DNA of 411 bases from Escherichia coli (GTDB lineage Bacteria > Pseudomonadota > Gammaproteobacteria > Enterobacterales > Enterobacteriaceae): assembly GCF_003334335.1 (NCBI RefSeq), contig NZ_QOWQ01000195.1; one strand, given 5' to 3'. Each line of letters starts with the position of its first letter. The first letter of the stretch is position 1. A program made the position numbers. Below are positions 1 through 411 of the stretch, piece by piece.

Positions 1-411
1 CCGTGTATCACGGGATTACCGTCCGTGTCCGTCAGCGGGGTTTTGTTCACCAGAATACTCTGCAGGCCTTTCACCGGACCTTCAATGGGTCCCTCACCAA
101 TCGCATCAATCACGCTCATCATCTGCGTGGATTTGAGGTTGTCTTTCGCCTCACGCGGTGTGTGCGCCCTGCCGCCACCTTTGCCCATTACATCACCTCT
201 TACCGTGATAATTGTTCACTCACAAAAACAACAGGCACCTCACCGGGTGCCTGCGTCATGACGGAATAAAATTTCTGAATATCTTCACATTTTCACACAC
301 TGACTGTGGCGCTTATAATTTCGCTGCGTTAGTTTTTTTTTGCCCGAGTAACAAAAACAACTCCTTAACATTAATCTTCATTTGTCTGTCCCCGCAGCTC
401 CGCGATCACTG

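Follow-up and report, generated by a model that had tools for sequence, protein, structure and literature searches.

Four described systems come close to the element reported here. The late-operon terminators of lambdoid phages (tR′ and downstream sites in lambda, 82, 21, and Stx phages) consist of a GC hairpin and a U-tract on the late strand, in noncoding gaps of the PR′ operon, and it is established lambda biology that Q-modified RNA polymerase ignores terminators. Lambdoid morons, such as lom and bor, are promoter-gene-terminator cassettes, and moron units of lambdoid phages are reportedly the subject of work by Juhala and Hendrix from 2000. The small RNA PasB of EPEC is an Hfq-dependent sRNA of 83 nt, located at 1466343 to 1466261 on the minus strand of NC_011601.1, for which AATCCCGCAGTGATCGCGGAGCT served as the northern probe (PMC8550237, Pearl Mizrahi 2021, table S6). 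In EHEC Sakai, the Hfq-CRAC peaks EcOnc22, EcOnc23, and EcOnc24 were assigned to prophages Sp15, Sp14, and Sp11, and their RNAs ran at ~85 nt on northern blots and were destabilized without Hfq (Tree et al. 2014). Finally, a terminator in the mobile element Tn916 is reported to prevent premature expression (PMC11658703). Our literature searches returned nothing specific on a terminator between the phage tail genes I and J.

The stretch of DNA analyzed here, which we call the window, comprises 411 bases of an Escherichia coli contig (NZ_QOWQ01000195.1 of assembly GCF_003334335.1). As read from the sequence together with RefSeq annotation, its minus strand carries the 5′ end of the tail-tip/host-specificity gene J at positions 1 to 188, with the ATG at 188 to 186 (start MGKGGGRAHTPREAKDNLKS), and a ribosome-binding site, AAGAGGTGA, can be read directly at 201 to 193 on the same strand. 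The identity of J comes from loci that are 98 to 100% identical to the window, in which RefSeq names the product "gpJ: phage attachment tail tip protein J." The window is matched at 100% identity by prophages of three complete E. coli genomes and at 98.1% by prophage PP6 of EPEC E2348/69. Of 5,426 complete E. coli genomes, 1,888 contain sequence similar to the window, 188 nt of which are J coding sequence; so do 149 phage records, most of them Stx-converting. The gene order in annotated relatives is H-M-L-K-I, a gap of ~240 nt, and then J, and the stop codon of I lies 18 nt past the right end of the window. In the window-identical prophage of E. coli EC2 the I gene is annotated as frameshifted (locus L217, 5403 to 5983), so that copy may be defective. 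Rfam returned no family over the window or over representative loci. Sub-threshold matches to archaeal C/D-box snoRNAs inside J (69 to 126, minus strand) are probably due to chance, as is a weak 5-bp terminator-like site that lies antisense within J (22 to 39, plus strand). Rfam IS009 matched the tail-fiber-assembly region of lambda at 217.7 bits (locus L216, 22316 to 22514, plus strand), which fits the remark in the PasB preprint that IS009 is a common structured match near PasB.

Between I and J, on their strand and inside the lambdoid tail (late) operon, lies an element with the form of an intrinsic terminator (221 to 254, minus strand). Read along the minus strand it is GCAGGCACC-CGGTGA-GGTGCCTGT, with the 5′ arm at 254 to 246, the loop at 245 to 240, and the 3′ arm at 239 to 231, followed at 230 to 221 by the U-tract TGTTTTTGTG. 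A consensus scan of the window returned it as the one strong minus-strand site, having a stem of 9 pairs (6 of them G-C) and a 6-nt loop. The first-pass annotation, which was made from the sequence alone, had placed a strong hairpin and T-tract on the J strand about 30 nt before the J start codon and just 5′ of the ribosome-binding site, and our analysis bears this out, with the last T of the U-tract located 33 nt before the ATG and ~20 nt before the ribosome-binding site. The hairpin is also stable in an RNA context, as it is kept in both the minimum free energy and the centroid structures of a 226-nt J-strand RNA that includes the leader; this settles in its favor one of the points on which the first-pass annotation had said it could be refuted. 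In isolation the stem-loop has a folding energy of -16.1 kcal/mol, and a 46-nt segment containing it reaches -18.1 kcal/mol (z = -3.0). When we asked how often a comparable site arises by chance, defined as a stem of at least 8 with a GC count of at least 5, a loop of 3 to 8, and at least 5 T in 8 on either strand, 19 of 2,000 dinucleotide shuffles of the window contained one. No other terminator-like site on the operon strand ranks as high within 12.4 kb of the 100%-identical prophage. It thus has a GC-rich stem (about 5 to 14 bp being usual), a loop within the range of 3 to 8 nt, and a U-tract directly 3′, and it forms in RNA context, all of which are expected of intrinsic terminators.

We consider it probable that this hairpin is a Rho-independent terminator on the J strand that insulates J from transcription that has not been antiterminated. 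A J-strand polymerase without Q modification would transcribe the stem and U-tract and would be released ~20 nt before the J ribosome-binding site, which would leave J and the genes behind it silent in a lysogen. The polymerases stopped in this way may arrive by read-through from the upstream tail genes or by stray or divergent initiation around the strong, AT-rich PasB promoter and its CRP-like site, both described below. During lytic growth, Q-modified polymerase from PR′ would be expected to pass the terminator on the strength of what is established for lambda. The proposed logic resembles that of the Tn916 insulator in that the genes of the element would stay silent until an antitermination or activation step, although both the element and the bypass mechanism differ. 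The hairpin lies 175 nt beyond the I stop codon, so a ribosome terminating there would not mask it; at terminator tR2, a stop codon a few bp away is reported to repress termination, which rises with distance (PMC4824070). In EPEC RNA-seq, I and J have very low base means (4.8 and 15, respectively), which leaves little transcription to stop under those conditions.

Fifteen distinct variants of the hairpin type found in the window (A type) align without gaps, and 98.7% of their stem cells pair, compared with 34 to 49% in a control in which the partner columns of the same 15 variants were slid. One stem pair changes from C-G through U·G to U-A, and all other changes in the stem retain pairing. 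Positions T38 to T41 of the U-tract are invariant in the 15 variants while the loop (CGGTGA, TCCG, TCAG, or CACG) and the 3′ flank vary, and the sequence beyond the U-tract diverges. Pairing that is kept in the stem, together with an invariant U-tract core amid a drifting loop and flank, fits a terminator and not a bare hairpin. The covariation score was reached by 5 of 500 shuffles and comes from one compensatory pair; the signal is genuine, yet the close relatedness of the sequences makes it thin. An apparent compensatory paired insertion in the stem was rejected, since the alignment is gap-free and the change is a pair of substitutions. In Sakai the U-tract is weaker (TTGTTTTCT). The A-type hairpin occurs with at least three different J leaders, which makes it a mosaic piece of its own.

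To the right of position 253, the first-pass annotation had expected an independently transcribed unit on the minus strand. A small-RNA unit does exist there, and its promoter block is physically linked to the hairpin, but the unit is PasB, and it lies on the plus strand. Mapping from the 98.1% match (w = 1466684 - r, where w is the window position and r that in the E2348/69 record, the minus strand of the window being the plus strand of the record) places PasB at 341 to 411 and on to ~423, such that the window holds the first 71 of its ~83 nt and ~12 nt fall past its end. The complement of the published probe is readable at the right edge of the window and beyond. A sigma-70-type promoter, TTCACA-16 nt-TATAAT (292 to 319, plus strand), points toward PasB with an 11/12 match and ranks above every other promoter-like site in 12.4 kb of the identical prophage. 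PasB also has a terminator of its own, detected in the identical prophage, whose 5′ arm CCCGCAG occupies 391 to 397 on the plus strand and which, as CCCGCAG...CTGCGGG with a T-run, adjoins the I stop codon. PasB is therefore antisense to the tail operon, with its own promoter and its own terminator. The hairpin before J stands ~87 nt from PasB, on the opposite strand and outside the mapped RNA. With the independent unit on the plus strand the hairpin is not its transcriptional end, and coordinate, strand, and probe mapping together rule it out as PasB's own terminator.

Two details of PasB itself deserve mention. The window and E2348/69 differ at PasB nucleotides 27 (C to A) and 33 (G to A), which correspond to 367 and 373 in the window. 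The PasB preprint describes a variant, PasB-2, with a difference at position 27, and by its sequence the PasB of the window, differing at both nucleotides, may be a further variant. The second detail concerns the 5′ end. The promoter at 292 to 319 predicts a start near 326, and EPEC RNA-seq and the EHEC CRAC peak (shifted by +137) give a 5′ end near 341, which comes after a U-run. Either a weak -10 element, TAGTTT (330 to 335), or 5′ processing in the U-run could account for the reported end. This alternative -10 reads TACTTT or TAATTT in other variants, and in Sakai both the TATAAT and the -35 are degenerate and the RNA was detected nonetheless.

The EHEC peaks EcOnc22, EcOnc23, and EcOnc24 all fall in Sakai I-J gaps. 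Their published coordinates refer to an older genome version, with an offset of about +128 to +137, for which AsxR and the StxS1 3′ end mapped at tR′ by Term-seq served as our calibration points. Once this offset is applied the peaks fall on the PasB homologue, and at +137 their start is the base homologous to window position 341. Placed unshifted on NC_002695.2, the three would have been antisense to the hairpin, a placement that the calibration led us to reject. PasB of EPEC and EcOnc22/23/24 of EHEC Sakai thus appear to be the same sRNA family in the same I-J slot, an identification that depends on the +128 to +137 offset. Among the rows listed from the table of Tree et al. (2014), each EcOnc peak has only the other two as homologues, and the discovery table of PasB gives no EHEC homologue for it. 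The present hairpin shares the I-J gap with these RNAs of ~83 to 85 nt, and their promoter block accompanies it or the B-type hairpin in 118 of the 119 informative loci listed (see below). It differs from them in strand and in lying outside the mapped RNA, and no Hfq binding is reported over it among the entries listed.

To compare the I-J gap across phages, we sampled loci in three ways, using as anchor the J N terminus, the PasB promoter block, or the hairpins, and never the feature being tested. The J N-terminal anchor yielded 79 usable IMG/VR loci. The promoter block is present in 66 of them, and all 66 have a J-strand hairpin with a T-run between the block and J: A type in 21, a second type (B type) in 44, and a weaker hairpin only in the remaining locus. 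The B-type hairpin, AAAACCCCGGTATC-tgct-GATACCGGGGTTTCTCTTT, is unrelated to the A type, stronger (-22.9 kcal/mol), and ~100 nt further from J, and the segment between block and hairpin is likewise unrelated in A-type and B-type loci. In L029, L028, and related loci, the B-type hairpin lies ~120 to 155 nt upstream of the J ATG and is preceded by an A-run, so it may terminate in both directions. Next in the B-type gap is a second, weaker hairpin (GCATGgcAGAAAtgtgTTTCATGC and TTTTCGGG), and in one locus (L070) the strong hairpin is deleted. With the promoter block as anchor, a J-strand hairpin and T-run appeared in every one of 28 distinct spacers. Starting from the A-type hairpin, at least 51 lambdoid loci have the block upstream among the matches listed, and the sole listed lambdoid locus in which no block was detected ends at a contig end. 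Starting from the B-type hairpin, the block is upstream in 67 of 68 loci among the matches listed, the exception being a rearranged case. With the two hairpin anchors together, block and hairpin are paired in 118 of 119 informative loci among the matches listed; the other hairpin matches that lack the block are in unrelated phages. The lambda I-J hairpin discussed below escaped a greedy stem-extension scan, and neither it nor the B-type hairpin is in our consensus-scan site lists; both were judged from sequence and folding. The tight pairing of hairpin and PasB promoter block suggests that the hairpin serves as an insulator, shielding J from transcription that passes through or starts in this strong, AT-rich promoter region.

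The gap has other occupants as well. In 13 of the 79 loci (L003, 640 to 1500) it contains a reverse-oriented sodC gene (Cu/Zn superoxide dismutase, 218 bits against a cut-off of 165). The cassette has a hairpin of its own and takes the place of the PasB promoter, J-strand hairpin, and J leader; a promoterless PasB body remains, and no hairpin precedes J. Phage mEp021 has an HNH endonuclease gene between I and J and no hairpin. The I-J gap is thus a repeatedly used insertion slot, taken by pasB, sodC, or an HNH gene. Such a hairpin is also absent where the gap measures 8 to 9 nt (S107, Erwinia, and Mannheimia) and where the two genes overlap (phi80). Since the sodC loci and the phages with 8- to 9-nt gaps manage without it, the hairpin is not essential for J.

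Hairpins also occur in this slot without PasB. The 60-nt I-J gap of lambda (NC_001416, 15445 to 15504) contains ...gtgaAACCGCC-tgcg-GGCGGTTTTGTCATTT... ~20 nt before the J ATG, the positional counterpart of the present hairpin, and two lambda-like phages retain it with a loop change. Serratia phage Niamh, whose gap is 68 nt, has AAAGCCCC-tgtcct-GGGGCTTTTTTT. In all, four unrelated hairpins, each with a T-run 3′, occupy the slot just 5′ of the J ribosome-binding site, and homology among the four is not demonstrable by sequence. Like tR′ and the lambda I-J hairpin, the element in the window pairs a GC stem with a U-tract on the late strand in a noncoding gap; it is unrelated to them in sequence and differs in being paired with an sRNA promoter block, and its bypass by Q would follow from the lambda precedent.

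The occurrence of such hairpins in lambda-type and Serratia-type gaps raises the possibility that ours is an ancestral feature of the I-J junction with no connection to PasB, that each lambdoid I-J gap has a terminator of its own, and that the pasB cassette landed upstream of an existing one. The association of the A-type hairpin with several J leaders, which marks it as a mosaic piece apart, is compatible with such a history. If this were so, however, one might look for an "empty site," an A or B hairpin without the block, and none was present in the 119 informative loci listed apart from the one rearranged case, although rare ones may exist beyond these loci. The hairpin also has no demonstrable sequence homology to the lambda gap. 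We regard an origin independent of PasB as distinctly unlikely.

A role in RNA stability or processing, which we likewise judge unlikely, must be weighed against the same comparisons. Here the hairpin would protect the 3′ end of a processed upstream mRNA (Z...I) or belong to the 5′ region of the J mRNA, and would set the proportions of tail proteins made in lytic growth while terminating little. The lambda late operon has further hairpin and T-run sites at E/FI, J/lom, and lom/stf (7163 to 7180, 18920 to 18935, and 19612 to 19633, respectively), and these several intercistronic hairpins, with the one at I/J, suggest a general role inside the operon. The present hairpin is very stable, and a polymerase modified by Q would ignore terminators anyway. 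A T-run, however, is needed for termination and not for protection from exonucleases, yet the core of the U-tract is invariant and all four hairpins of the slot have a T-run directly 3′ of the stem. Nor would a role in stability predict so close an association with the PasB promoter block. On these grounds we continue to prefer termination.

The hairpin had also been interpreted at first as the classic downstream boundary of a moron or small-RNA unit on its own strand, and this interpretation is not supported. No sigma-70-like promoter was found by scanning the minus strand of the gap in its window-type, B-type, or Sakai form, and no conserved ORF is present. The only minus-strand ORF of the gap encodes 22 aa (MKINVKELFLLLGQKKTNAAKL, 381 to 313), lies antisense to PasB, and has a GGGGA-like motif upstream. 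Its ATG is ACG in the large class represented by L028 and Sakai has a different frame; the ORF is thus probably noncoding, and we rejected it as a small protein for lack of conservation. PasB, the unit that is present, ends at its own terminator, and the slot in lambda, which contains no insert, has a hairpin and T-run too. The resemblance to morons is therefore partial. As in a moron, the hairpin borders a cassette that is inserted in a structural operon and transcribed independently; unlike in a moron, pasB is on the other strand with its own terminator by the I stop, and the hairpin faces the opposite way.

It is very unlikely, in our estimation, that the hairpin terminates an unrecognized J-strand RNA of ~50 to 90 nt with a divergent start in the PasB/CRP promoter region (~270 to 310) and an end at 222. 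A hairpin with a U-tract is the standard 3′ module of Hfq-dependent sRNAs too, this one is linked to a promoter block, and prophage sRNAs are often paired (Tree 2014). Candidate -10 elements can also be found, as TATAAT (314 to 319) with one further T gives AATTAT on the other strand and GATATT (283 to 278) is a 4/6 match. However, the minus-strand promoter scan was negative in all three versions of the gap, and the bases of GATATT coincide with the NN positions at which the block varies (TA, GT, or AT) and are not conserved. The lack of relatedness between A-type and B-type loci in the segment from block to hairpin also argues against it. Among the EHEC Hfq-CRAC peaks listed, an assay of Hfq-dependent RNAs, none is a J-strand RNA at the hairpin, and those in these gaps are the PasB-strand peaks EcOnc22 to EcOnc24 only. 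The EPEC RIL-seq entries listed, which are also Hfq-dependent data, include none at 14664xx, where the hairpin and the J leader are located, and at least 23 coordinates at 14663xx, those displayed being PasB.

The most conserved block of the gap has at its core a CRP-like palindrome, ATTTCTGA-atatct-TCACATTT (271 to 292, center 281.5), which lies upstream of the PasB promoter; the block is kept in all architectures that carry PasB. The palindrome matches TGTGA-N6-TCACA at 9 of 10 positions, a level reached by 7 of 200 shuffles, and it matches the extended CRP consensus at 19 of 22 positions (13 of the 16 specified), a level reached by 1 of 200. The variable positions of the block lie within the CRP spacer (TA, GT, or AT in different loci). 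Its center lies at about -60.5 from the reported 5′ end of PasB and at -44.5 from the start predicted by TATAAT; judged by class I and class II distances, the former is close to a CRP class I position and the latter is nonstandard. Spf is repressed by cAMP-CRP. PasB has been reported to be higher in a "nonactivating" condition in which Spf is ~5-fold lower, and this pattern is compatible with activation of PasB by CRP. From its sequence and placement, we infer that the palindrome may function as a CRP site. The main texts of the two PasB papers do not mention CRP with respect to PasB and describe no PasB promoter.

A more speculative proposal, to which we assign little probability, is that the terminator and pasB form one regulatory module, in which either leaky terminated J-strand RNAs sponge PasB or PasB pairs in cis and tunes J. 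If the sponge version were true, hairpin-capped J-strand RNAs would carry a perfect antisense to PasB. If the cis version were true, PasB, possibly under CRP control, would pair with the late mRNA at the I-J joint and tune the host-range protein J. Such a module would couple carbon-source sensing to tail-fiber expression.

The preferred reading, a terminator that insulates J, makes the hairpin an ordinary element of a known class, newly described here, and its main value is annotational, as the PasB sRNA has already been published. In lambdoid tail operons, it shows where a frequently used insertion slot ends on the side of J. The identity of PasB with EcOnc22 to EcOnc24 and a conserved CRP-like site upstream of pasB would add to what is known about PasB. 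Because similarity to the window extends to 1,888 of 5,426 complete E. coli genomes and to many Stx-converting phages, placing PasB on its correct strand matters for the transcriptomes of pathogens. Finally, the sRNA promoter block is nearly always accompanied by an opposite-facing terminator before J, which suggests that there has been selection for keeping J silent in lysogens.
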